Source of the DNA: a virus
IMG/VR virus record: IMGVR_UViG_3300045988_063015
Span: 1 to 45,976 of that record
Length of the DNA: 45,976 nucleotides
Reading direction: 5' to 3' (one strand)
In this document: one piece after another, positions 2,872-29,874 of the stretch
Numbering within the stretch: position 1 is the first letter of the stretch
How the letters are laid out: each line of letters opens with the position of its first letter
Notes under the pieces: generated by a model
Told to the model about the DNA's origin: nothing
What the model saw: only the letters and a program-made list of their open reading frames with translations
The model's database searches: none
Made by a program: the position numbers and the translations under genes

Positions 2872-4110
2872 ATGCTTACCCCGGAGTATCTGCAGCACGC
2901 GGCAGAGGGCGCAGAAGCCATCACAGAGGATTTGCACAACAGGATCATGCGGAAGATCGTAAAGGCGATTCTAACCCGCATGGAACGCGGCGAGAATTAC
3001 ATGTTGACGGCGGCGGACAAGTGGAGAATCGAAGCACTGCAGGAAGCTGGCTATTTGCTGGAAGATATACAGAAAGAGATAGCAAAGGCGACCAACCAGC
3101 AGCTATCAGAGATCAAATCAGCCTGCATTGACGCTGGAATACAGACGCTCAAATGGGATGACGCAGTATACACGGCGGCTGGGCTGGCACCAACGCCGCT
3201 TCTTCTTTCCCCAACACTTATGCGTGTTCTTGAAAGGGATTACAAGGCGACTGCAGGCACATGGCGTAACTTCACCCGGACGACCGCGGAAGAAGCGCAG
3301 AGACTCTTCATCAACGAGCTTGACAGCGCCTACCACAGGGTTCTGAGCGGCGGAGAGTCTTACGGCGCTGTGGTGGCTGATCTGATCGAGAAAGTGTCCG
3401 AGGAGGGGCTAACAGTCAAGTACCCGACCGGATACCGGCAAAGCCTTGAATCTGCGACCATGACCATTGTACGCACTGGTATAGCGCAGGCAGCGTGTGA
3501 TGTATCAGAAGCGCGAATGGAAGAAATGGATTGGGATATCATTCTTGTATCTGCTCATGTAGGCGCACGAACGGGAGACGGCGGGCAGAACCCGGGGAAT
3601 CATCTTTGGTGGCAAGGGCGATTCTATTCCCGAACCGGAAAAAACAAGAAATACCCGAATTTCTACGAGGTGACCGGATACGGCACCGGCGAGGGACTGG
3701 GCGGCTGGAATTGCCGTCATAGTTTCGGATCTGGTGACGGAAAGAACAATCCATTCGACGAGAAAAATATCTCTTACGCAGATAATCGTAAGGTGGAAGA
3801 AGCACAGAAGCGGCAACGATTGTTGGAACGCAGGATACGAAACAGCAAAAGGCAAATTCAAACATTGCAATTTGCTATAGACAACGCAAGCGACAATGAG
3901 ACGAAAAGCAAATTGCAAAGTAGAACAGAGCAAAAAGCTAATTTGCTTAGTAAACAAAATAAAGCATATCGCAAGTTTTGCGAAGACAACAACCTGCGCC
4001 CTTATGATGAGCGATTGAAAATAGCCCATTGGGACAGAAAACAGGCAGCAAGAGCCGCAGCGGATGCACGGCGATATCAAAAACGCAAAAAGGAAAAAGC
4101 AGATGATTGA
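2872..4110 (+). CDS. Minor head / head-morphogenesis protein (Mu F / SPP1 gp7 family)
   Basis: 412 aa directly after the portal region. It carries the GGWNCRHS motif typical of the MuF family and a basic coiled C-terminus. Confidence 0.85.
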   Translation: MLTPEYLQHAAEGAEAITEDLHNRIMRKIVKAILTRMERGENYMLTAADKWRIEALQEAGYLLEDIQKEIAKATNQQLSEIKSACIDAGIQTLKWDDAVYTAAGLAPTPLLLSPTLMRVLERDYKATAGTWRNFTRTTAEEAQRLFINELDSAYHRVLSGGESYGAVVADLIEKVSEEGLTVKYPTGYRQSLESATMTIVRTGIAQAACDVSEARMEEMDWDIILVSAHVGARTGDGGQNPGNHLWWQGRFYSRTGKNKKYPNFYEVTGYGTGEGLGGWNCRHSFGSGDGKNNPFDEKNISYADNRKVEEAQKRQRLLERRIRNSKRQIQTLQFAIDNASDNETKSKLQSRTEQKANLLSKQNKAYRKFCEDNNLRPYDERLKIAHWDRKQAARAAADARRYQKRKKEKADD

Positions 4111-4435
4111 GACGATTAATCAAATCATGATTCTCTGCGGCTGGATAACTACAGTAGGTGGCGCGATTGTGGTTCTGACCGGAGCATGGAAGAAATTCAA
4201 AAAGCCCGAGAGGGATCTGGAAAAGAGGATGCAGACAATAGAGGAGGATATCAAGGATATCAAGTCAAAACTTGAGAAAGATTATACTTCCATCCGAACC
4301 CAACGAGACGATATGAATCTGATAATGAGGAGTATGTTCAACCTGATCGAAAATAAGATTACAGGGAACAACATCGAGGGCTTAAAAAAAACGAGGGAAG
4401 AACTTGTAAATGCGATGACTGACAAGAAAAATTAA
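4103..4435 (+). CDS. N-terminally membrane-anchored coiled-coil protein, unknown function
   Basis: 110 aa starting MIETINQIMILCGWITTVGGAIVVLTGAW, followed by a charged helical region. It overlaps the upstream stop by 8 nt. Confidence 0.55.
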   Translation: MIETINQIMILCGWITTVGGAIVVLTGAWKKFKKPERDLEKRMQTIEEDIKDIKSKLEKDYTSIRTQRDDMNLIMRSMFNLIENKITGNNIEGLKKTREELVNAMTDKKN

Positions 4436-4446
4436 GAGGGCTTATC

Positions 4447-4647
4447 TTGAAAGTGTATGAATTCACAGTACCGGAGCTGGAATATTTTCGCACGTATTGT
4501 AATTTTACGCGTGACGAACGTACACTTTTTGATTATCGGAGTAGGAATATTCCGCTCGAAAAGTGTGCGGAACTAATGAACATTTCTGTTTCTACTGCAA
4601 AACGGATCAGCAGAAACGTAAACACCAAAATCATTAAAGTATGTTGA
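4447..4647 (+). CDS. Small HTH protein resembling a stand-alone sigma-70 region 4 / LuxR-type HTH
   Basis: 66 aa with a TTG start. The segment TRDERTLFDYRSRNIPLEKCAELMNISVSTAKRISRNVNTKI has the region-4 HTH pattern. Confidence 0.5.
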   Translation: MKVYEFTVPELEYFRTYCNFTRDERTLFDYRSRNIPLEKCAELMNISVSTAKRISRNVNTKIIKVC

Positions 4648-4672
4648 TTGATACTTTTTTGAGTATTTCATG

Positions 4673-4704
4673 GGACTTTGACGAACTGTCAGAGTCCTTT
4701 TTTT
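4673..4704 (+). terminator. Rho-independent terminator
   Basis: GGACTTTGAC / GTCAGAGTCC forms a 10-bp stem (one G-U pair) with a 5-nt loop, followed by T7. Confidence 0.7.
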
Positions 4705-4738
4705 GCGCCTAAAATAGGGGTAGAAAGAGAACGGAGGA

Positions 4739-5185
4739 ATGAATATGTATCCGTATATTGACCCGCAGGCATTTGCGAATGAACAGGCAATGCTGCAGCA
4801 GAGAATTAATCAGTTGGAACAGGCGAGAAACCAGCAGATGAGCATGTATGCCCCGCAGAACCAGCAACAGCCGCAGGCACCGACCAGTAACGTAAACTGG
4901 ATACAGGTTGCTGGAATTGAGGGAGCAAGAAACCAGATTGTCCAGCCTGGGCATACGGCGTGGATGATGGACAACAACAGCCCTGTATTCTACGTCAAGT
5001 CTGTGGATGGCATGGGAAGCGCGACTTTTAAGGTGTTTCAGTTCGCCGAGATCTCGCCAGAAGCCCTAAACCCGGCACAGAACCAGTCGAAAGAAGAAAG
5101 ACAAGAATACGTTACGCGGCAGGAATTTGACGCTCTGCTGACGCGATTAGGCGAAAAGCCGGAGAATAAGGAGGAATCCGTATGA
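4739..5185 (+). CDS. Gln/Asn-rich protein, unknown function
   Basis: 148 aa with a Q-rich N-terminal half (QQRINQLEQARNQQMSMYAPQNQQQPQAP) and a globular C-terminal half. The second ATG at 4745 has better spacing to the GGAGGA. Confidence 0.6.
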   Translation: MNMYPYIDPQAFANEQAMLQQRINQLEQARNQQMSMYAPQNQQQPQAPTSNVNWIQVAGIEGARNQIVQPGHTAWMMDNNSPVFYVKSVDGMGSATFKVFQFAEISPEALNPAQNQSKEERQEYVTRQEFDALLTRLGEKPENKEESV

Positions 5186-5442
5186 ATCCATTAATGAGCA
5201 TGATAGGCAATATGGGCGGCGGCAACAACCCGATGGGTGCGATGATGCAGGCTATGCAGATGGTCAATAAGCTCAAACAGGCGGGCAACCCGCAGGCCGC
5301 AGTAGAACAGATGGCGCAGACTAACCCGAACGTCAAGAAAGCTATGGATATGTGCAGAGGTAAGAACCCAAAGCAGGTATTCGAGGACATGTGCAGACAG
5401 AACGGGATGGATCCGGGGCAGTTCTCCGGGCTGATGAAATAA
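5182..5442 (+). CDS. Met/Gln/Asn-rich small protein, unknown function
   Basis: 86 aa with a strong AAGGAGGA RBS and an ATGA overlap with the upstream stop. Composition is M/Q/N/G-rich. Confidence 0.55.
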   Translation: MNPLMSMIGNMGGGNNPMGAMMQAMQMVNKLKQAGNPQAAVEQMAQTNPNVKKAMDMCRGKNPKQVFEDMCRQNGMDPGQFSGLMK

Positions 5443-5495
5443 GATATTAGGGCGGTGCACAGCCTTAATAAATAGAAGGATAAGGAGAAAGAACC

Positions 5496-6185
5496 ATGAC
5501 AGATGGAACAATGGGACTTAGCGCGGCTGATGTAGCAGCCGTCACAAGAAACAACGACGATGATGGTTGGGGAAATAATTCCTGGATTTGGATTATTTTC
5601 TTAGCTTTCTTATTCCCAATGATGATGGGCGGATGGAACCGCGGCGGCGTTGAGACTGGCGTACAGGACAATTTCATTTCAGATGAATTTGTGAAACGTG
5701 ACATTTTCAATACCAATCAGAACGTTTCCAACACAGCTTGCCAGACGCAGAGAGACGTACTGGAAAACCGGTATACCAATCAGCTCGGCTTACAGCAGGT
5801 GCAGGCGGCACAGCAGAATTGTTGCTGTGAAACACAGAAAGAGATTCTGCAGAGCCGATATGATGCGGCACTCATGGCACAGAATATGCAGGCTCAGATG
5901 GCACAGTGTTGCTGCGACATCAAGGAGAGCATTCTGGCCGATGGAAACGCAACCAGACAGATGATGCAGGAAAACACCATCCAGGCACTTAGGGATAAGC
6001 TGTCAGACCGTGACCGTGATCTGCAGAATGCGTACAATCAGATTTCACAGGTTTCGCAGACCCGTACAATCATTGATGCGGTACGCCCGACACCTACACC
6101 GGCTTATCTTACATGTTCCCCGTATTTCGCGTACAACATGACCGGATACGGCGGATGTTGCGGAAATGGCGGTAACGTGCTTTGA
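5496..6185 (+). CDS. Single-pass membrane protein with Cys-triplet repeats
   Basis: 229 aa with a TM helix WIWIIFLAFLFPMMMGGW. Three repeat units follow (ACQTQRDVLENRY / CCCETQKEILQSRY / CCCDIKESILADG), and the C-terminus is GGCCGNGGNVL. Confidence 0.6.
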   Translation: MTDGTMGLSAADVAAVTRNNDDDGWGNNSWIWIIFLAFLFPMMMGGWNRGGVETGVQDNFISDEFVKRDIFNTNQNVSNTACQTQRDVLENRYTNQLGLQQVQAAQQNCCCETQKEILQSRYDAALMAQNMQAQMAQCCCDIKESILADGNATRQMMQENTIQALRDKLSDRDRDLQNAYNQISQVSQTRTIIDAVRPTPTPAYLTCSPYFAYNMTGYGGCCGNGGNVL

Positions 6186-6397
6186 TGAACACAAGCGAGC
6201 TGTCCGCACTCGATCTTCTGAACCTGTTCGGTGTATTCCTGCAGGCGATGAACTATCAGAGCGACCTGTCACAGGCGAGCAATGCAGATATCGCAAAGCA
6301 CCTGCAGGAACAGGACAGAAAGTACCTTGACCGGATCATCGAAAACCAAAATAAAATAATCAGCATGTTGGAAGATTCCAAATCTACGAAACAGTAG
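6185..6397 (+). CDS. Small hypothetical protein
   Basis: 70 aa with a TGATG overlap with the upstream gene. Confidence 0.5.
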   Translation: MNTSELSALDLLNLFGVFLQAMNYQSDLSQASNADIAKHLQEQDRKYLDRIIENQNKIISMLEDSKSTKQ

Positions 6398-6409
6398 TTG
6401 TGCAAAATT

Positions 6410-6444
6410 GCAGGGGTAGGCGTGGAGCTTGCCCCTGTTTTGTT
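6410..6444 (+). terminator. Weak terminator-like hairpin
   Basis: CAGGGG / CCCCTG stem with a 15-nt loop, followed by TTTTGTT. Confidence 0.35.
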
Positions 6445-6462
6445 AAGAGAAGGAGAGAAATT

Positions 6463-6891
6463 ATGTTAAATGTAATTGCAAAAGCAGAACAGACAGTAGC
6501 AGCAGGACAGAATGTTGTATTTACCAATACACGCGTAAAATCCCGTCGTTGTGGATGCTCCAGCGGATGGCTGAACCACATCGAGGGAAGCGGAATTTTC
6601 ACAATCACGAACCGGACGAACCTTCCTATCGCGGTAGAATTACAGTTCAACGGAAACGTAACAGCGGCGGCAGCGGGCGCGACCGTGCTTACGCTGAAAT
6701 TGAACGGAGAAGCGGTTGGAGGAACAGAGATGGATTATACCGTAGTTACTGCGAACACTTATCAGAACGTGAGCGCAAACACACTGATCCCTGTACCGGC
6801 GGGAACGAGCCTTACTGTGTCAGTCGGAAATATTTCTGCAACCGAAGTCCTCGTAAAAGACGCGAACCTCATCATCAAAAAAGTTGCGTAG
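6463..6891 (+). CDS. BclA C-terminal-domain-like (C1q/TNF-like jelly-roll) protein without a collagen stalk
   Basis: 142 aa with RBS GAAGGAGAG. LTLKLNGEAVGGT and the C-terminal ANLIIKKVA resemble LTIQVNGVPVPGT and SIIIEKVA of Bacillus BclA-CTD as I recall that sequence. Confidence 0.6.
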   Translation: MLNVIAKAEQTVAAGQNVVFTNTRVKSRRCGCSSGWLNHIEGSGIFTITNRTNLPIAVELQFNGNVTAAAAGATVLTLKLNGEAVGGTEMDYTVVTANTYQNVSANTLIPVPAGTSLTVSVGNISATEVLVKDANLIIKKVA

Positions 6892-6904
6892 GGGGTGACG
6901 AATC

Positions 6905-7498
6905 ATGATTACTTTCCGAAGCAAAACAGACGTAACAGATGCGGATGCTATCTTTTCGGAAATCAACAGCCGCTTCATTGCGGCTATCATGATGCACGAT
7001 CAGCTCGCGGATTATTTTGATTTTCTCGGATTGAAAGGATATAAGCGGCTCCATGAGTACCAGCACCTAGCGGAAAGCATCGAACGAAGAAAAATATGCA
7101 ACTATCGCATCGAAAGACACGGAAAACTGATTAAAAATGCGTTTTCTGGTGAAGTGAAGATGATTCCGGATAGCTGGTATTCCGCAAAAAGTATATCTGT
7201 AGGAAAAGGAACTAAGCAGAAAGCTGTAGAAGATGGATTCTCAGCATATCGGGAATGGGAAGAGGAAACAAAAGAGGTGTATCAGATCTATGCCGCCGCG
7301 CTACTTGAGAAAGGTAACGTGGAAGATTTCACGCTTGTAACTTCTCTGGTGGACGACGTAAGTAATGAGCTGAAAGAAATCGACAAGATTATTCTGAACC
7401 TGATCTCAACCGGCTATGATATGGTCCATATTACCGAATCGCAAAAAGAGTTGCACAAGAAATACAAGAAACGCATGAAGGAAATTGAGGTGGAATGA
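6905..7498 (+). CDS. Helical protein with ferritin-like residue pattern (tentative)
   Basis: 197 aa. The segments LGLKGYKRLHEYQHLAESIERR, REWEEETKEVY and LVDDVSNELKE resemble the E..H / E / E..E ligand layout of ferritin-like four-helix bundles. Confidence 0.4.
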   Translation: MITFRSKTDVTDADAIFSEINSRFIAAIMMHDQLADYFDFLGLKGYKRLHEYQHLAESIERRKICNYRIERHGKLIKNAFSGEVKMIPDSWYSAKSISVGKGTKQKAVEDGFSAYREWEEETKEVYQIYAAALLEKGNVEDFTLVTSLVDDVSNELKEIDKIILNLISTGYDMVHITESQKELHKKYKKRMKEIEVE

Positions 7499-7920
7499 TG
7501 GGAAGCGTAAAAGAAATACTGGAAAAGCAGTTGGAGAGAGAAAAAGAATCTGCGATGCAGAAGCTTACGACAGATAACCTTGACGCAATGTTCAAAATCA
7601 CGACCACGTTATGCAATATGCGAAAAATGGAGTGTGAGAGCATTCCTGCGGCCATGATGGACGCGTCAGAAACGCTGATTAAGAAGTACAGCAATGGAAA
7701 ATACGATAAGAATATTGACGCGCTGTATGACGAGTACATTGCGGCAAAAATGGCGTACCAGGAACACGGAGACGCGGCGCACAAAGATAAGCTGATGGAT
7801 TCCGTCGGCCGTCTGATGGTTGAAGTGTTCGATATGCTGCAGGCTATGATTCTCGATGCGGATTTCCGCGACGAAAGACAGGCTATCATGCAGCAGATTC
7901 GGAAACTTGCCGACACATAA
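7495..7920 (+). CDS. Helical hypothetical protein
   Basis: 141 aa with an ATGA overlap with the upstream stop. Confidence 0.55.
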   Translation: MMGSVKEILEKQLEREKESAMQKLTTDNLDAMFKITTTLCNMRKMECESIPAAMMDASETLIKKYSNGKYDKNIDALYDEYIAAKMAYQEHGDAAHKDKLMDSVGRLMVEVFDMLQAMILDADFRDERQAIMQQIRKLADT

Positions 7921-8083
7921 GACAAGATGGGTACAATGGGGAGGGAAAAATATAGTACGATAAGACCGTGAAAAGAAGTTGGGATTGGCTTGTAAGTCAT
8001 TTTGATGTTCAATTCACCTCCTTTCGACGTTCTAGGGGATCCTGTTAAGAGCCTGCACAAGGCTCGGAACGTGTCTGAAATAT

Positions 8084-8123
8084 GCCGCGTTTTCCGTTCC
8101 TCGAGCCTTTCTGAAAACGCGGC
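8084..8123 (+). promoter_or_regulatory. Perfect 11-bp inverted repeat (RNA hairpin) inside the non-coding leader
   Basis: GCCGCGTTTTC (8084..8094) pairs with GAAAACGCGGC (8113..8123), with an 18-nt loop. Confidence 0.45.
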
Positions 8124-8137
8124 GTGTTTCTTGTTAT

Positions 8138-8232
8138 TGGGAAACAGAAAAGAAGATTGTGTGTTCCTCTCACACTGCCATACATTCAATCTCTCTTGGA
8201 CTGCTTGATAGGTTCGAATCCTATTTTCCCAT
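8138..8232 (+). ncRNA. tRNA-like element (canonical T-arm plus 7-bp acceptor-like stem; not a canonical tRNA)
   Basis: ATAGG-TTCGAAT-CCTAT (8208..8224) is followed at once by TTTCCCA, which pairs with TGGGAAA at 8138..8144. An internal hairpin GTGTG-TTCCTCT-CACAC is present, but there is no D-arm and the element is 94 nt long. Confidence 0.35.
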
Positions 8233-8309
8233 TACCCCGGCAGAGGTTGATCTGCCTAAATCCATTACTGCCGACGGGCAGTTAAAAACAACGTTTAGGA
8301 GGATAGAAA

Positions 8310-8972
8310 ATGCAGAATTATGAAACGATTCTTACGGAACTTGGAATCGAGATTCCGGAAGATAAAAAATCGGATCTGAAAAAGAAGATGGAGGAAAACT
8401 ATCGAACAAAATCAGATTACGACAAGGTGGTATCGAAACGCGATGAATATAAAAACTCGCTGGACGATGTGCAGAAAGAGCTTGAGGGATTCAAAGACGT
8501 AAACGTTGAAGAATTACAGTCGAAAGTAACAACCCTCACCACACAGCTCAATGAAGAGAAAGCCGGACGGGCAGCAGATGCCAGAAAGGCAGAGGTCGAA
8601 AAACAGGTAAATGATTTCTTGACGGCTACAGATGAAAAGGGAGCAAAGAAATACGAGTTTTTGAACAGCATTACGGCTGATTACTACCGCGCGGAGCTTG
8701 CGAAAGCTCTGGACGCTGATTCTGCAAAAGGAAAGTCCATCGCGGACATCTTCACGGAGATGATTACCGATAAGGATGGAAAACAGAAAACAGGGATTTT
8801 TGTGGATGCCGGAACTGAAAACGCCAAGAACCACGCGGCACGGTTTACTCAGCCTACAACTGGTGGCAAAGGCGGCGAGCTTACAAAAGAAAGTTTCCGC
8901 AAAATGAATCTCGATGAGAGAGTTAAGTTAAAAGCAGAAGATCCCGAATTGTATGAAGCACTCTCGAAATAA
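8310..8972 (+). CDS. Capsid scaffolding protein (Phage_GP20-like)
   Basis: 220 aa, charged and helical, directly upstream of the major capsid gene. Confidence 0.8.
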   Translation: MQNYETILTELGIEIPEDKKSDLKKKMEENYRTKSDYDKVVSKRDEYKNSLDDVQKELEGFKDVNVEELQSKVTTLTTQLNEEKAGRAADARKAEVEKQVNDFLTATDEKGAKKYEFLNSITADYYRAELAKALDADSAKGKSIADIFTEMITDKDGKQKTGIFVDAGTENAKNHAARFTQPTTGGKGGELTKESFRKMNLDERVKLKAEDPELYEALSK

Positions 8973-9031: not shown

Positions 9032-10060
9032 ATGCCAAGAACTGGTACTTTTGGCGGCTTTTCGTTTGACCCGGAGGTGTTCTCCGACTACATGAGCGAG
9101 CAGCCGACCTGGAATGACCGAATCTTAGCGTCTGGAATCCTTGTACAGGATCAGACGATCATGGATCTGATCGGAACCAAAGGAAACGTTGCGACGCTTC
9201 CATTTTATGTTCCGATTGACGAGGATGAATCTCACGCGCTCAACAATGATGGTGAAACCGACAACACCCCGACTGAGATCAGTGGAAAGAAACAGACTTG
9301 TATGCTGACCCAGCGTATGAAAGCATGGAAAGCCCAGGATTTCACAAAGGAGCTGACCGGCGCTGACCCGATGACGCATGTTGCAAACTCTGTTGCCGGA
9401 TTCTATCGGCAGGTAAGAACACGCGATCTCATGGCTATTGTTGACGCGGTTCTTTCACTGGACGGTATGAAAGATCATGTTACGGATCTTTCGGCGACGG
9501 CATCTTCTGGGGTTACAACCGTAACCGATGCAAACAAAATCAATGATACAACACTGATTTTCGCGCAGCAGAAAGCAGTTGGAGACGCAGACGAGAACAT
9601 GGGTCTGCTGGTCATTAACTCTTACATCTACGCTCGATACAAGGCTATGGGGCTGGTTGATTACAACAAGTACACCATCACCAATGCTATCGAGCGAGAT
9701 GTTGAACTTCCAACGATCGGCGGATTCATTCCGGTTGTATCTGACCGTTTCACGGTAGACACATCTACAGACGTTCCGATCTATAAGAGCTATATGATCG
9801 GATCTGGAACGGTGCTCACCTGCGATAAGACCAACTACGAGGACCCGTACTATGCAGACTACGATCCGGAAACCAAAGCCGGTATTCGTAAGTTATACAC
9901 AAAACAGGGCTACGTGTTGCATCCGAACGGATTCTCAATTAACGCAAATAGAATCGCAAAAGAATCCCCGACCAATGCAGAACTCGGAGCAAAAGCGAAC
10001 TGGTCACTTGCGTTCAATCACAAAAATATCCGTATGGGACTGATTAAGTCCAACGGTTGA
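9032..10060 (+). CDS. Major capsid protein (HK97 fold expected)
   Basis: 342 aa between the scaffold and head-tail connector genes, with a strong leader and RBS. Confidence 0.85.
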   Translation: MPRTGTFGGFSFDPEVFSDYMSEQPTWNDRILASGILVQDQTIMDLIGTKGNVATLPFYVPIDEDESHALNNDGETDNTPTEISGKKQTCMLTQRMKAWKAQDFTKELTGADPMTHVANSVAGFYRQVRTRDLMAIVDAVLSLDGMKDHVTDLSATASSGVTTVTDANKINDTTLIFAQQKAVGDADENMGLLVINSYIYARYKAMGLVDYNKYTITNAIERDVELPTIGGFIPVVSDRFTVDTSTDVPIYKSYMIGSGTVLTCDKTNYEDPYYADYDPETKAGIRKLYTKQGYVLHPNGFSINANRIAKESPTNAELGAKANWSLAFNHKNIRMGLIKSNG

Positions 10061-10074
10061 CGGAGGTATCTGGC

Positions 10075-10557
10075 ATGGCATATGCAGACTATGAATTTTA
10101 CACAACTTCATATTTCGGCGATACCGTGCCAGAATCCGACTTCCCGCGGTATGCCGAGCGGGCAAGCGATCGAATCGACATTCTGACGTTCGACCGGCTT
10201 GCCGACGGGCTGCCGGAAAACGAGCGGGCACAGAAGAAGATCAAGAAAGCGGTATGCGCTCTGGCGGATGCGCTCTTTCAGATCGACACCGTGAAAAATG
10301 CCGCAATGGAAACAGTAGGAACCGTAAAGAGAGAAGACGGAACAGTCATCAATAAGGCCGTTTCTTCGGTTTCTTCCGGCAGTGAAAGTATTTCCTACGT
10401 GACCGGAACCAGCGGCACAAATTCCAGCGTCTACGGACAGGCGGCGATGGATAAAAAGGTCGAAAATGTACTCGTGACACAGACTATTCTCGAAAATCTA
10501 CAGGGAGTTATGACGGATGACGGCGTCCCGCTCCTGTATGCAGGCGTTAGGTTATGA
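10075..10557 (+). CDS. Head-tail connector (gp6-like) protein
   Basis: 160 aa starting MAYADYEFYTTSYFGD...FPRYAERASDRIDILTFDRL, typical of gp6-like connectors. GGAGG lies 8 nt upstream. Confidence 0.65.
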   Translation: MAYADYEFYTTSYFGDTVPESDFPRYAERASDRIDILTFDRLADGLPENERAQKKIKKAVCALADALFQIDTVKNAAMETVGTVKREDGTVINKAVSSVSSGSESISYVTGTSGTNSSVYGQAAMDKKVENVLVTQTILENLQGVMTDDGVPLLYAGVRL

Positions 10558-10558
10558 T

Positions 10559-10756
10559 ATGGGCGGAAGAGGTAGCAACAGCGGACTGATGAAAACTGTA
10601 AATGGTAAGACAGTAAAACGTTTCAACCTCTCCCCTAAAGGCTGGAAACCCGTAGAAAATGCTCTTACGAATCCTAAAGGCTATACGTGGTATTCAAATG
10701 GAAAATCACGTTTTAGCGGTCAATATGAGACTGCGCTTGTAAAGAATAAGAAGTAG
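10559..10756 (+). CDS. Small protein with MGGRG N-terminus
   Basis: 65 aa starting MGGRGSNSGL. It is inserted between neck genes, and its N-terminus is shared with the 44092 and 44489 products. Confidence 0.5.
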   Translation: MGGRGSNSGLMKTVNGKTVKRFNLSPKGWKPVENALTNPKGYTWYSNGKSRFSGQYETALVKNKK

Positions 10757-25376: not shown

Positions 25377-26456
25377 ATGAGGATTGACAGATCATATATC
25401 AGTAACCAGAACACTTACGCCGAAAACGATCCGCGGTGTATCGTGGTGCATAATACGGATAACTTCGCGGCAGGAGCGAACGCGCTGGCACACGCGAGAG
25501 CGCAGTATAACGGTAACTTTGAGAGCATGTCCGCCCATTATTACACAGATGACGGGGACGTTGCCTACCAGGCTGCGCCGCATAGCCGCGGATGCTGGCA
25601 TGTGGGCGTAAATTATGGTGGTAATAACCTGTTCGGCAGATATGGCAACCGTAGCAGCATCGGCGTGGAGATGTGTGTGCAGAAGGGATACAATTACGAA
25701 AAAGCGTTTCAGAACACGGTTGCCGTGGTCAAAGAGATCATGCGTGAAACCGGTATTCCGGCAAGCCGCGTATATCGCCACTATGATATCTGTAGTAAGC
25801 ACTGCCCGAGTCAGATTATGGAGAGGGGCGACTGGGATCGTTTCAAGCGTCTGATCAGTGGCAGCGCATCGGCTGATACGCCGAAGCAGCCTGAAAAGTC
25901 AAAATACGAGCCAGGAATCTACAAGGTCAATACCGACCTTAATATCAGAGAGCAGCCAAACGCAGACAGCCGTATCGTTGGCATGATCACGGATCAGGGC
26001 AGCTATACGGTAACAGAGATCCAAAACACAAGCTGGGGACGGCTGTTATCCGGTGCGGGCTGGATCAACTGCCATGCTAAGTATTGCACTTATGGCGGTG
26101 CAGCCAAAAAATCAAACGAGAAAGCGATCACGGTTGATGGCATTTGGGGGCATGAGCTGACCAAACGCTTGCAAGAGATTTTTAAGACCGGCGTAGACGG
26201 CGTGATCAGTGATCAGCCGACGAGCAACAAAAAATACTGCGCTGGCATTGCGGCGGCCGAATGGTCTGGCAAGCTGTCCGGAGGCTCCGATCTGATCAAG
26301 GCCATGCAGAGATGGGTTGGAGTGACCGCGGACGGATATATCGGACCGCAGACCATCCGCGCGCTCCAGAAAAAACTCGGCACACCGGTTGACGGCGTGA
26401 TTAGCTACCCGTCAGCGATGGTCAAGACTTTGCAGGAGTGGTGTAATCGGCAGTAA
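25377..26456 (+). CDS. Endolysin: N-acetylmuramoyl-L-alanine amidase (Amidase_2) + SH3 + two PG-binding repeats
   Basis: 359 aa with amidase motifs VVHNTDN, IGVEMC and HYDICSKHCP. An SH3-like segment YKVNTDLNIREQP is followed by VDGIWGHELTKRLQ and ADGYIGPQTIRALQKKLG. Confidence 0.9.
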   Translation: MRIDRSYISNQNTYAENDPRCIVVHNTDNFAAGANALAHARAQYNGNFESMSAHYYTDDGDVAYQAAPHSRGCWHVGVNYGGNNLFGRYGNRSSIGVEMCVQKGYNYEKAFQNTVAVVKEIMRETGIPASRVYRHYDICSKHCPSQIMERGDWDRFKRLISGSASADTPKQPEKSKYEPGIYKVNTDLNIREQPNADSRIVGMITDQGSYTVTEIQNTSWGRLLSGAGWINCHAKYCTYGGAAKKSNEKAITVDGIWGHELTKRLQEIFKTGVDGVISDQPTSNKKYCAGIAAAEWSGKLSGGSDLIKAMQRWVGVTADGYIGPQTIRALQKKLGTPVDGVISYPSAMVKTLQEWCNRQ

Positions 26457-28535: not shown

Positions 28536-28585
28536 TGAAAAACGCGAAAATGGCGTATTTGCGGGCAGAATAAGAGGTATGGATA

Positions 28586-28632
28586 CTTGACTTTTAATCA
28601 AGTTGTCCGGGGTTCGAATCCCCGATGCTTCA
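28586..28632 (+). other. attP core: 3' two-thirds of a tRNA-Lys(UUU) (anticodon arm, variable loop, T-arm, 3' acceptor strand)
   Basis: CTTGA-CTTTTAA-TCAAG (anticodon TTT), then TTGTC, CGGGG-TTCGAAT-CCCCG, and ATGCTTC-A. No matching 5' acceptor strand or D-arm lies upstream, and the site is adjacent to the integrase. Confidence 0.7.
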
Positions 28633-28760: not shown

Positions 28761-28771
28761 TTTCGTGTCAC
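28750..28771 (+). repeat. 22-bp direct repeat, copy 2
   Basis: AAATGTGTCATTTTCGTGTCAC, overlapping the int stop codon. Confidence 0.6.
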
Positions 28772-29874
28772 ATGGAAAGAGCTGCTTCTACCGCTCCGGC
28801 GGTGTCCTCTTTTTCCAGCATAATATGATTGTAAATCCTCAAAACCATTGCTTCGTCATCCCCCAGGAGCGACGCGATGTTCTTGATCGAGATGCGCGGG
28901 ATCTGGTAGCAGAGCGACGTGCAGTAGTTGTGCCGGAAGATATGGGCTGTGAGTCCGCATACGGGCTTTTCAGCGACTCTATTCATTTCCTTGATGATTC
29001 TTTCCCACTTCCGGCGGTAAGAGGATTTAGATACCATTTTGCCGCCCTGCATGGAAAACAGAAGCGTTCCCTTGATACAGAACCGCACGTAGCTTTCCAG
29101 CGACGTATAGAGCTGCTGCGGAATTGGAACCTGCCGGAATCCGTTCTTCGATTTCGGTTCTTTGATGCTCGGCTTTCCGGCATCATCGAACTCGATTGAT
29201 TTATTCACGTTGATGACCTTTTCGGAAAAATCAATATCAAACCGTGTGAGAGCAAGAACTTCTCCACATCGTAGCCCCGTGCAGTATAAGATATCCACAA
29301 AAATCCGATCAGATGGGGATAACTCTGCTTTCACCATGGCGTTTTTTTCGTTTTCGGTTAACGGTCGTTTCTCATCCGCCTTGTAGTCGATCGGCTTCAT
29401 CACGTCCTTGAGATCCTCCAGCAGGTTGGCGGGATATAATCGGTCATGCACCGCGGCCTTCATGATCTGCGAGAATGTAAGCTGTATCTGCTGCTGGATG
29501 CGTTTCTTTCCGGCCGCGTCGTTAAGGACTGTCTGGTAGTGGATCGGCAGGACATCGCAGAGCCGCACGCCGTCCATCTGTCGCAGATGCTTTTCAATGA
29601 TATTTTGGTACATCCTCTTCGTGTTGTTCGTTGCTTCGGCTTTGTAGGCTGTCAGCCACCGCCCGGCGTAGTCCAGAAACAGGATGTTTTTATCTCGGAC
29701 GGCTTCAAGGTTCTTAATTTTGTCGTTGTAGGCTGCCACCTTTGCTTCCAGATCCTTACTGCTTTTCTTCGACCGGATCGTAATATAGTGCTTTTTCCCA
29801 TCAACATAACTTCCATCCCACACACGGGCTTGAAAATACCCGTTCTTTTGCTTTGTATACTTCGCCTTTGCCAT
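28768..29874 (-). CDS. int: Tyrosine recombinase / phage integrase
   Basis: 368 aa with an N-terminal SAM-like domain. Catalytic-region motifs are TGLRCGEVLAL, AHIFRHNYCT and LRIYNHIM. Confidence 0.92.
   Translation of the reverse strand: MAKAKYTKQKNGYFQARVWDGSYVDGKKHYITIRSKKSSKDLEAKVAAYNDKIKNLEAVRDKNILFLDYAGRWLTAYKAEATNNTKRMYQNIIEKHLRQMDGVRLCDVLPIHYQTVLNDAAGKKRIQQQIQLTFSQIMKAAVHDRLYPANLLEDLKDVMKPIDYKADEKRPLTENEKNAMVKAELSPSDRIFVDILYCTGLRCGEVLALTRFDIDFSEKVINVNKSIEFDDAGKPSIKEPKSKNGFRQVPIPQQLYTSLESYVRFCIKGTLLFSMQGGKMVSKSSYRRKWERIIKEMNRVAEKPVCGLTAHIFRHNYCTSLCYQIPRISIKNIASLLGDDEAMVLRIYNHIMLEKEDTAGAVEAALSM

Follow-up and report, generated by a model that had tools for sequence, protein, structure and literature searches.

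The DNA analysed here, positions 1 to 45,976 of IMG/VR record IMGVR_UViG_3300045988_063015 (the window; 45,976 nucleotides [nt]), comes from a temperate siphovirus-type genome, a gut prophage, in which nine plus-strand open reading frames (ORFs; i1 to i9) fill the interval between the MuF gene and the scaffold-like gene at 4103-7920, with the coordinates and gene count that a preliminary description of this DNA had given. The nine genes form a genuine set under strong conservation; most of them make up an autonomous cassette that is passed among unrelated phages and that probably builds a membrane-anchored protein complex. We tentatively favour, with rather less than even confidence, the reading that this complex is made late, is directed at the cell envelope and is accessory to lysis or exit, as opposed to being a part of the capsid or of the spore surface.

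The case for a set begins with synteny. Window proteins were compared by tblastn with 152 IMG/VR loci from partly overlapping scans with i7 and i5 as baits; all relatives were retrieved via island genes, so the sample is one of island carriers. The complete nine-gene set was found in 133 of these loci, while 15 others lack i6 only and form a single clade (L140-L154); gene order was colinear in 151 and the flanking MuF and scaffold genes were found in 150, with protein identities running from 99% down to ~50%. In the distant relative L073, i2, i3, i5, i7, i8 and i9 are 29-55% identical to those of the window, with portal and MuF at just 31-33%. Comparison of the nine genes with three relatives gave saturated synonymous divergence (dS >1.4 or undefined), a nonsynonymous divergence (dN) of 0.07-0.40 and a dN/dS ratio (omega) of 0.02-0.20 wherever it could be computed; on these comparisons all nine are real genes under purifying selection.

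Morons, described in lambdoid phages by Hendrix and colleagues, are autonomous transcription units between essential genes, and the nine genes could in principle be independent morons that happen to be neighbours, as their small size, the lack of an assigned function, the two internal hairpins and an insertion hot spot between i2 and i3 would suggest. That idea is hardly credible, being contradicted by the shared order and content in the 133 loci as well as by the recurrence of the core in very distant phages at other positions. The proposal that the nine genes belong together, and are not scattered morons, thus held up on co-inheritance. None of the nine matches a known head accessory protein in Pfam, NCBIfam, PADLOC or PHROGs, where searches with the nine proteins yielded only PHROGs without assigned function and sub-threshold matches. 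The literature on the Clostridium perfringens phages that carry the cassette (see below) and on BxpB/ExsFA in phages contained no functional data that we could find.

The genes around the island are mosaic. Identity to the major capsid protein of the window is at least 75% in 97 of the 152 loci and below 35% in 49, and for the terL product 59 loci reach 75% or more and 74 stay below 60%; terL and major capsid classes combine freely across L003-L154, with portal, MuF and the island staying together. As the major capsid protein can be swapped for a type only 25-28% identical with the island constant, these allele swaps indicate that the island is not bound to any single type of capsid. Within the island, the i2-i3 gap is a hot spot for insertion, measuring 90 nt in the window and 0-2.3 kb across relatives, and its inserts split the island into i1-i2 and i3-i9. 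The gap was located at 4648-4738 in the window, 3927-5254 in L050, 3864-5280 in L052, 2974-5265 in L053, 2819-4460 in L068 and 5067-6279 in L140; the genes inserted there are small and unrelated, with several of them in reverse orientation, and their products by eye resemble XRE-type helix-turn-helix (HTH), ribbon-helix-helix and Zn-finger/AP2-like proteins; in L053 the gap carries a second copy of i2. A near-identical relative, L071 (IMGVR_UViG_3300007717_000023), apparently lacks i4, i5, i6 and the N-terminal half of i7 at 6879-7228; the missing stretch reflects a natural deletion or else faulty assembly, and if real it would mean that such a phage genome can be maintained in the absence of the cassette core. 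With respect to the adjacency of the flanking genes in insert-free relatives, the MuF region of one phage, HMD-PC1, has no cassette, yet other genes follow MuF there.

Evidence that the cassette is portable was obtained with profile hidden Markov models (HMMs) that were built from the relatives and searched against further loci. In the C. perfringens phages HMD-PC1, PMQ04 and 17DYC, the order i3-i4-i5-x-i6-x-i8 is found in the early region, between the antirepressor gene ('DNA binding protein' in PMQ04) and Gam/recombinase-type genes (names that appear in only some of these phage records), and over 10 kb separates the cassette from the portal, MuF and capsid genes; the HMD-PC1 record has no annotated integrase. 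Dulem virus 33 has the cassette flanked by lysis genes and integrase, Dulem virus 39 has it 3' of the integrase beside replication genes, and in L184/L185 it directly follows a Phage_holin_Dp1 gene and a Peptidase_M23 endolysin; in L166, endolysin-like, holin-like and i1-like genes (translations read by eye) precede it. The slot seen in the window, between MuF and scaffold, recurs in Dulem virus 35, Bajarodcaudo virus 2 and L178/L179, and close relatives are prophages of Lachnospiraceae, found in Coprococcus comes MSK.16.63 (a cultured strain, with all nine genes), Marvinbryantia and metagenome-assembled genomes (MAGs) of Clostridiales. Among distant loci i3-i4-i5 is a near-universal core, with i2 directly 5' of it in L002, L073, L166, L169, L171, L175, L177 and L186 and an i1-like gene for a transmembrane coiled-coil protein sometimes preceding i2 and the core. 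The slots after i5 vary and have one or more of several occupants: a C1q-like protein (i7 type) or, instead, a Cys-rich beta protein of ~120-150 residues whose N-terminal part bears a CxxC; a small helical protein (i6 type); a ferritin-like protein (i8 type) or a short rubrerythrin-like one; and a protein of i9 type or of DUF7841 type, the latter with Arg/Asp/Tyr-rich low-complexity tails. A Pfam search with ten of the alternative slot proteins returned only DUF7841 and a weak rubrerythrin match. For the Cys-rich slot protein, comparison of its profile with the Protein Data Bank (PDB) gave nothing meaningful, and an identity as an Ena/DUF3992-like spore appendage subunit was dropped, with no such match in Pfam or the PDB. 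DUF7841-type partners were located in L168 (5336-5965), L183 (1559-2011), L184 (8436-8879) and L180 (3864-4469); they tie the cassettes of Firmicutes phages to a crAss-like gene annotated 'RNA polymerase sigma factor/ubiquitin-like protein'. By these gene orders, i3-i9 is a horizontally mobile cassette, with i2-i3-i4-i5 as its core, that occupies several positions in phages of Clostridia.

By this distribution the set is not tied to the head module, since the ordered cassette is found elsewhere in early regions, after lysis genes and beside integrases. A head-associated role, with i7 trimers decorating three-fold axes and i5 and i1 packaged with MuF as internal or ejection proteins, could still be argued from the MuF-scaffold slot of the window lineage, Dulem virus 35, Bajarodcaudo virus 2 and L178, and from the presence of C1q/TNF-like domains in phage fibre and spike knobs; coiled coils with a transmembrane segment are, moreover, typical of ejection proteins. 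We nonetheless regard it as quite unlikely, considering the early and post-lysis positions distant from head genes, the constancy of the cassette across the capsid swap, its own terminator, promoter and regulator, and PHROG head-family matches at chance level only.

The region upstream of i3 appears to make the cassette a unit of its own. Its order (a hairpin, a run of 7-9 T, a TRTGn-(C/A)ATAAT-like element, ~25-40 nt and a ribosome-binding site) recurs in loci whose proteins are merely 30-45% identical and also where i2 lies kilobases away. The hairpin is kept paired by compensatory changes in the window, L001, L059, L067, L073, L140 and L002, and one whose stem is unrelated in sequence occurs in L166, L168, L169, L171, L175, L177 and L186; in the window clade a pair of GA(T/G)ACTTT motifs precedes the hairpin, and the pair recurs near i3 even with i2 kilobases off. 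As predicted from these elements, i3-i9 form a unit of their own, set off by an insulating terminator and the -35-less, extended -10 promoter that follows it, and i1-i2 are read with the late head transcript, with i2 as the candidate activator of the cassette, acting on the region upstream of i3. The repeat ACTTT-N6-ACTTT is not enriched in the window (4 matches vs. 5 expected), and it was dropped as a mark of other window promoters.

Some details of the preliminary description need revision in this light. Its strong terminator after the HTH gene stands (hairpin 4672-4698), but it is not the sole one, as a second strong internal hairpin lies at 6410-6438; z-scores for the hairpins were computed against shuffled sequence and all three, including the one in the i9-scaffold spacer, are near -4.8. 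Translational coupling, said to join most of the genes, is confined to four overlapping junctions (MuF/i1, i3/i4, i5/i6 and i8/i9), with gaps of 11-90 nt elsewhere. The notion of one functional set therefore holds for co-inheritance and fails for a single coupled operon, because a terminator and a promoter separate i1-i2 from i3-i9.

At the sequence level the cassette has the moron's own promoter and terminators (4672-4705; -10 at 4710-4715; downstream hairpin at 8078-8128). It resembles phage morons in its upstream terminator, its promoter-like -10, its downstream hairpin, its place within a late operon and a position that varies by phage. It differs from them in comprising seven to nine genes vs. 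one or two, in having its own regulator, in being conserved across very distant phages and in a base composition not clearly distinct from the flanks (GC 0.43-0.50 in the island vs. 0.44-0.52). Autonomous architecture of this kind is already known; the content of the cassette matches no described system, and to our knowledge the cassette as a unit is undescribed.

The same architecture could serve superinfection exclusion or defence, a sigma-A-type promoter keeping i3-i9 on in the lysogen and an i5 complex blocking DNA entry or aborting infection. The upstream terminator and own -10, the frequent position between lysis genes and integrase, the single-pass membrane topology of i5, and the high mobility with mosaic flanks all fit such a role. 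However, PADLOC gave no match for i2-i9 and only chance-level coiled-coil matches for i1, there is no enzymatic effector domain, and the carriers include C. perfringens phages without an annotated integrase as well as crAss-like phages, in which a role in protecting a lysogen is unlikely. We therefore consider exclusion unlikely.

The hallmark of the cassette is i5, which founds, as judged from its homologues, an uncharacterised family of ~800 clusters. A scan of 1.84 billion representative proteins, grouped into clusters at 50% identity, gave 798 clusters at E<=1e-3 and 266 at E<=1e-10, and a Pfam scan of 81 diverse i5 relatives assigned no family. After a short N-terminal tail the protein has a Gly-rich transmembrane segment, and an AlphaFold2 (AF2) model based on 81 sequences places a transmembrane helix at residues 29-43, a single 114-residue helix at 83-196 and a disordered Pro/Cys/Gly tail; 10-residue block means of the predicted local distance difference test (pLDDT) are 92-97 over residues 121-190. 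Invariant features are CCC-x-T inside the long helix, C140, RP-x-P-x-PAY and the C-terminal cysteines, with CSPY in the tail. The Cys-triplet membrane protein noted earlier is thus confirmed, with two CCC triplets, of which the first is invariant family-wide, and a transmembrane helix in the model. A Foldseek search of viral structures with the model found no match.

A tblastn search with a C. perfringens i5 homologue led to genes of crAss-like Suoliviridae annotated 'spike protein/glycoprotein'. These homologues (cr125_1 gp031 and cr53_1 gp66) match the i5 HMM with E values of 1.5e-24 to 6.5e-28 and keep the transmembrane segment, the CCC and the tail motifs. They share with i5 the Gly-rich transmembrane segment, the CCC, the RP-x-P-x-PAY...C tail and neighbours of transmembrane and DUF7841-like type; they differ in being longer (~300 residues), in standing beside a holin and in bearing an annotation that derives from remote profile matches. 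In cr125_1 and cr53_1 the order is holin, a 'LysB/FtsL-like' transmembrane protein, a DUF7841-like protein, the i5 homologue, two hypothetical genes and virion structural genes, and HMMs run on this block found no homologue of i2, i3, i4, i7, i8 or i9. Hosts of Crassvirales are non-sporulating Gram-negative Bacteroidota, and the crAss-like homologues therefore imply that, at a minimum, i5 and DUF7841 function in Gram-negative hosts that form no spores. Standard-code translations of the loci L180 and L181 (cr125_1 and cr53_1) have in-frame stops at conserved positions, which fits the stop-codon reassignment known in some Crassvirales.

The layout of i5 invites comparison with the lambda i-spanin Rz, with which it shares an N-terminal transmembrane anchor, a long coiled coil, conserved cysteines suited to intermolecular disulfides, a Pro-rich C-terminal region and, in several phages, a place beside lysis genes. 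Of the features that define a spanin, i5 thus has the N-terminal transmembrane segment, long coiled coil and cysteines, and lacks the outer-membrane partner and a host with an outer membrane. In further contrast to two-component spanins, i5 has no sequence relationship to them (no spanin among its PHROG matches at E<=0.1) and has soluble partners not known from spanin systems, and the host of the window has no outer membrane. We noticed no ORF for a lipobox or lipoprotein partner in the island, no search aimed at one having been made.

The i7 protein brought the spore surface into consideration. We take the ATG at 6463 as its start, in place of the GTG at 6400 used before, since alignments to the PHROG and to homologues start there. 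Its AF2 model is all-beta (pLDDT 68.8), and a Foldseek search of the PDB returned BxpB of Bacillus anthracis (8d02; E 5.9e-4, template modelling [TM] score 0.66) and ExsFA of B. cereus (7r1m; TM score 0.63), with ExsFA 7r5i and the ExsF-peptide complex 9h3d as further matches, and then Pgp3, C1q, TNF ligands and phage fibre knobs; the best matches among the viral structures of BFVD were same-size proteins of uncultured phages (TM score up to 0.76). In Pfam, i7 reaches 20.8 bits for BclA_C (PF18573), below the 38-bit cut-off, and a few homologues 81-83% identical to it carry a precomputed PF18573 match. It has a conserved Cys pair (C30, C32) and, over its 142 residues, no collagen-like Gly-X-Y repeat region; comparison of its profile with the PDB gave nothing meaningful. 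As modelled, i7 is a stand-alone C1q/TNF-like jelly roll closest to BxpB/ExsFA, bearing out the likeness to the C-terminal domain of BclA proposed earlier. It resembles these proteins as a stand-alone jelly roll of ~140 residues with 8d02, 7r1m and 7r5i as best PDB matches (TM score 0.63-0.66), and differs from BxpB, ExsFA and BclA in an identity of only ~13%, a sub-threshold BclA_C match and the lack of a collagen region, the fold being common also to C1q, TNF ligands, Pgp3 and phage fibre knobs. The ExsF trimer binds N-terminal peptides of its partner (F-Anchor, 9h3d), which by analogy suggests how i7 might dock on i5, and a retracted paper (PMC3104494) describes attachment of BclA by BxpB.

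On the strength of such matches the cassette might remodel the spore surface, a GerE-like regulator driving the coat- or exosporium-like i7, the Cys-rich i5, Gln/Tyr/Arg-rich partners and i8 onto the host spore. BxpB and ExsFA are indeed the best PDB matches of i7, i2 resembles GerE (2.9e-5), the soluble members read from their sequences have no signal peptide, like mother-cell coat proteins, R/D/Y-rich and Cys-rich partners occur in distant cassettes, and spore-forming Clostridia are among the hosts. We downgraded this reading because of the i5 and DUF7841 homologues in crAss-like phages of non-sporulating Bacteroidota; furthermore, the carriers include MAGs from lineages in which sporulation is not known, BclA_C is sub-threshold with no other coat or exosporium family among the Pfam and NCBIfam matches, the promoter is sigma-A-like as opposed to sigma-E/K-like, and the TNF-like fold is generic. 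The spore-surface flavour of the preliminary description survives as the structural resemblance of i7 and no further, and we consider the remodelling of spores improbable.

The remaining proteins offer partial clues. The first gene, i1, has weak PHROG matches to families without assigned function (6e-5), a holin (2.4e-3) and an Rz-like spanin (1.2e-2); its homologues precede the cassette in L165, L170 and L178, and by eye a similar transmembrane coiled-coil protein is encoded in L166 and L168. The sigma-region-4-like HTH assigned earlier to i2 is upheld by matches to both LuxR/GerE and region 4 profiles: i2 matches region 4 of phrog_1190 'sigma factor' (E 1.4e-5), and its profile matches the NarL C-terminal domain (1.4e-6), RhlR (7.2e-6), GerE (2.9e-5) and FliA region 4 (7.7e-5) in the PDB, as well as the SdiA C-terminal domain and region 4 of SigF and SigA; single-sequence Pfam matches are sub-threshold. 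With 66 residues vs. 74 in GerE and a match to the tetrahelical HTH profile, i2 is GerE-like; unlike sigma-70 factors it has no regions 2 and 3 (a sigma factor having regions 2 and 4), and unlike LuxR-type regulators it has no receiver or ligand domain. For i3, a beta-rich conserved middle of ~55 residues (read from the sequence) is followed by a conserved C-terminal YVTR-E-F/Y segment; searches of the PDB and Pfam yielded no relative, and every homologue is annotated 'hypothetical'. Its neighbour i4, which stands beside i3 and i5 in most distant cassettes, has repeated NP-started helices and two conserved cysteines. The small i6 is dispensable, being absent from L140-L154 and placed after the i7-type gene in L073, L165 and L184. 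In i9 the C-terminal half is conserved, and it has no PDB relative. Searches of Pfam, PHROG and homologue annotations, with PDB profiles for i3 and i9, found no relatives of known function for i3, i4, i6 or i9, and the idea that i8 or i9 is a DUF7841 protein was dropped (hhalign probability 0.1).

The ferritin-like label given to i8 is weakly borne out by profile comparison with the PDB, in which the ferritin matches (E 2.5e-3 to 7e-3, helices A-B only) include 5ls9, 3kx9 and 1s3q at E 2.5e-3 to 4e-3; Pfam gives no match at E<=1. R23, E57, E60, E119 and E155 are invariant, and the ferroxidase set (Glu, Glu-x-x-His, Glu, Glu/Gln) is incomplete, with Arg23 in place of the first Glu and Glu60 in place of the His, with E57 kept and, by manual alignment, E119 and E155 kept as well. 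Thus i8 is like archaeal and bacterial ferritins (Ftn) in helices A-B, including YFD-x-x-GLKG-F/Y, and in length and predicted four-helix layout, and unlike them in the missing Pfam match, the invariant Arg at the first di-iron ligand and the exchange of His for Glu. A metal or redox module, in which ferritin/rubrerythrin-like, Cys-triplet and Met-rich proteins hold or deliver iron or copper, or detoxify oxidants, in infected anaerobes, would find encouragement in these ferritin matches, in a short rubrerythrin-like protein in the same slot of L175 and L177 (E 1.4e-3), in the invariant CCC and CxxC motifs and in the Met-rich i4. Nevertheless, the replacement of the first ferroxidase ligand by an invariant Arg and of the His ligand by Glu, the absence of i8 from many cassettes in which i3-i5 are near-universal, and the weakness of every match make this role very improbable.

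We come back to the late membrane complex accessory to lysis or exit, which we favour because of the repeated adjacency to holin and endolysin genes, the carriers without an annotated integrase and the late-operon position in the window. We surmise that i2 would be made late, bind the ACTTT repeats and turn on the -35-less promoter; that i5 would insert in the cytoplasmic membrane and form a ~17-nm coiled-coil stalk, stapled by the CCC and the C-terminal cysteines; that an i7 trimer might dock on the Pro/Cys-rich tail of i5, as ExsF does on the F-Anchor peptide (9h3d) and as BxpB is described to attach BclA in the retracted PMC3104494; that i3, i4, i6, i8 and i9 would be assembly or partner proteins; and that the complex would act on the cell envelope late in the lytic cycle. 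Several points weigh against this proposal: 1) searches of Pfam, PHROG, NCBIfam and PADLOC tie none of the proteins to a lysis, spanin, defence or secretion family; 2) an ordinary endolysin is already present in the window (25377-26456), and a spanin-like role makes no sense for a host without an outer membrane; 3) i3, i7, i8 and i9, as read from their sequences, have no signal peptide, so that an i5 stalk outside the cytoplasm would be accessible to them only once the holin has acted, unless the stalk is itself cytoplasmic; 4) the post-lysis slot is a classic cargo slot of temperate phages, making adjacency a weak argument by itself; and 5) the i7 model has moderate confidence, the i5-i7 pairing and the target of i2 are pure inference, promoter calls are consensus matches, and the evidence on the cassette genes comes from sequence and models. 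A bolder version, which we hold to be rather unlikely, is an envelope apparatus not described so far, with an i5 stalk, an i7 trimer cap, ferritin-like and low-complexity partners and a GerE-like switch, that would serve phages of Gram-positive Clostridia and crAss-like phages of Gram-negative Bacteroidota in a late step of exit, or in exclusion, outside the holin-endolysin-spanin paradigm.

Whatever its mode of action, a mobile multi-gene unit with its own regulator that keeps its order across very distant gut phages almost certainly has an important role. The i5 family, without a Pfam entry, extends to crAss-like phages, the most abundant viruses of the human gut. Since some carriers are phages of cultivable C. 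perfringens and a cultured Coprococcus comes strain has the genes, experimental study is feasible. Knowledge of what it does might extend the textbook account of how phages of anaerobes complete their life cycle by a further step; should the cassette be dispensable cargo, the gain would be in annotation, with context for five PHROG families and DUF7841.

Table 1. Features of the window in and around the nine-gene island.
Feature	Position	Strand	Description
terL fragment and portal	8-958 (terL fragment)		5' of the MuF gene
MuF / minor capsid protein 2	2872-4110	+	Left flank; Pfam Phage_min_cap2 PF06152, E 4.5e-72; phrog_581 'minor head protein', E 1.5e-76
i1	4103-4435	+	110 residues; N-terminal hydrophobic segment, coiled coil; start overlaps the MuF stop
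i2	4447-4647	+	66 residues; stand-alone HTH of GerE/LuxR/sigma-70-region-4 type
Candidate i2 sites	4650-4658, 4672-4680	+	Two GA(T/G)ACTTT motifs, upstream of and overlapping the hairpin
Intrinsic terminator	4672-4705	+	11-bp stem (hairpin 4672-4698), T7 run; folding free energy (dG) -16.5 kcal/mol, z -4.9
Promoter-like site for i3-i9	4686-4715	+	CTGTCA, 18 nt, TAAAAT; -10 at 4710-4715; consensus-level prediction
i3	4739-5185	+	Gln/Pro-rich N-terminal region; phrog_21718, E 1e-19
i4	5182-5442	+	86 residues; Met/Gly-rich
i5	5496-6185	+	Hallmark gene; transmembrane helix, long helix with CCC-x-T, Cys/Gly tail
i6	6185-6397	+	Helical protein of ~70 residues
Stable hairpin in i6-i7 gap	6410-6438	+	Followed by TTTTGTT; dG -23.1 kcal/mol, z -4.9; terminator-like or processing site
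i7	6463-6891	+	142 residues; C1q/TNF-like jelly roll (modelled); phrog_20016, E 8e-20
i8	6905-7498	+	Ferritin-like, altered di-iron site
i9	7495-7920	+	Helical protein of 141 residues; phrog_28802, E 1.5e-9
Non-coding spacer	7921-8309	+	Right island boundary; 389 nt; hairpin 8078-8128, dG -23.8 kcal/mol, z -4.75
Scaffold-like gene	8310-8972	+	Right flank; assigned from position, homologues and the preliminary description
Major capsid gene	9032-10060
Amidase endolysin	25377-26456
Likely integrase ORF	28768-29874	-	Putative

Beyond the cassette, the spacer between i9 and the scaffold gene holds RNA elements in several relatives. A RAGATH-21 RNA (Rfam RF03097, 75-86 bits) lies in this spacer in L001 (5745-6084), L050 (8558-8934), L052 (8592-9168), L059 (8558-8652) and L068 (8589-9028), the coordinates being those of the spacer, and 1-3 tRNA genes (Ile-TAT, Met, Tyr, Ser, Asp) accompany it in L001, L050, L052 and L068, with none in L059. 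Rfam and ARAGORN searches of the island and of the corresponding window spacer (7921-8309) found no RNA family and no tRNA. ARAGORN predicted no tRNA in the window as a whole; an Rfam tRNA match of 59 nt (39.8 bits) at 28574-28632 lies ~140 nt from the putative integrase ORF and probably represents part of a tRNA marking the attachment site.

Finally, small ORFs of the window (10517-10756), L052 (3886-4455) and L053 (2997-3389 and 3613-4068) share the motif MGGRG(G/S)(S/N)SG, which is N-terminal in the island-inserted ORFs of the relatives and sits 15 residues in for the window ORF, a 79-residue frame among the genes downstream of the major capsid gene; the motif may be a shared targeting or processing signal.

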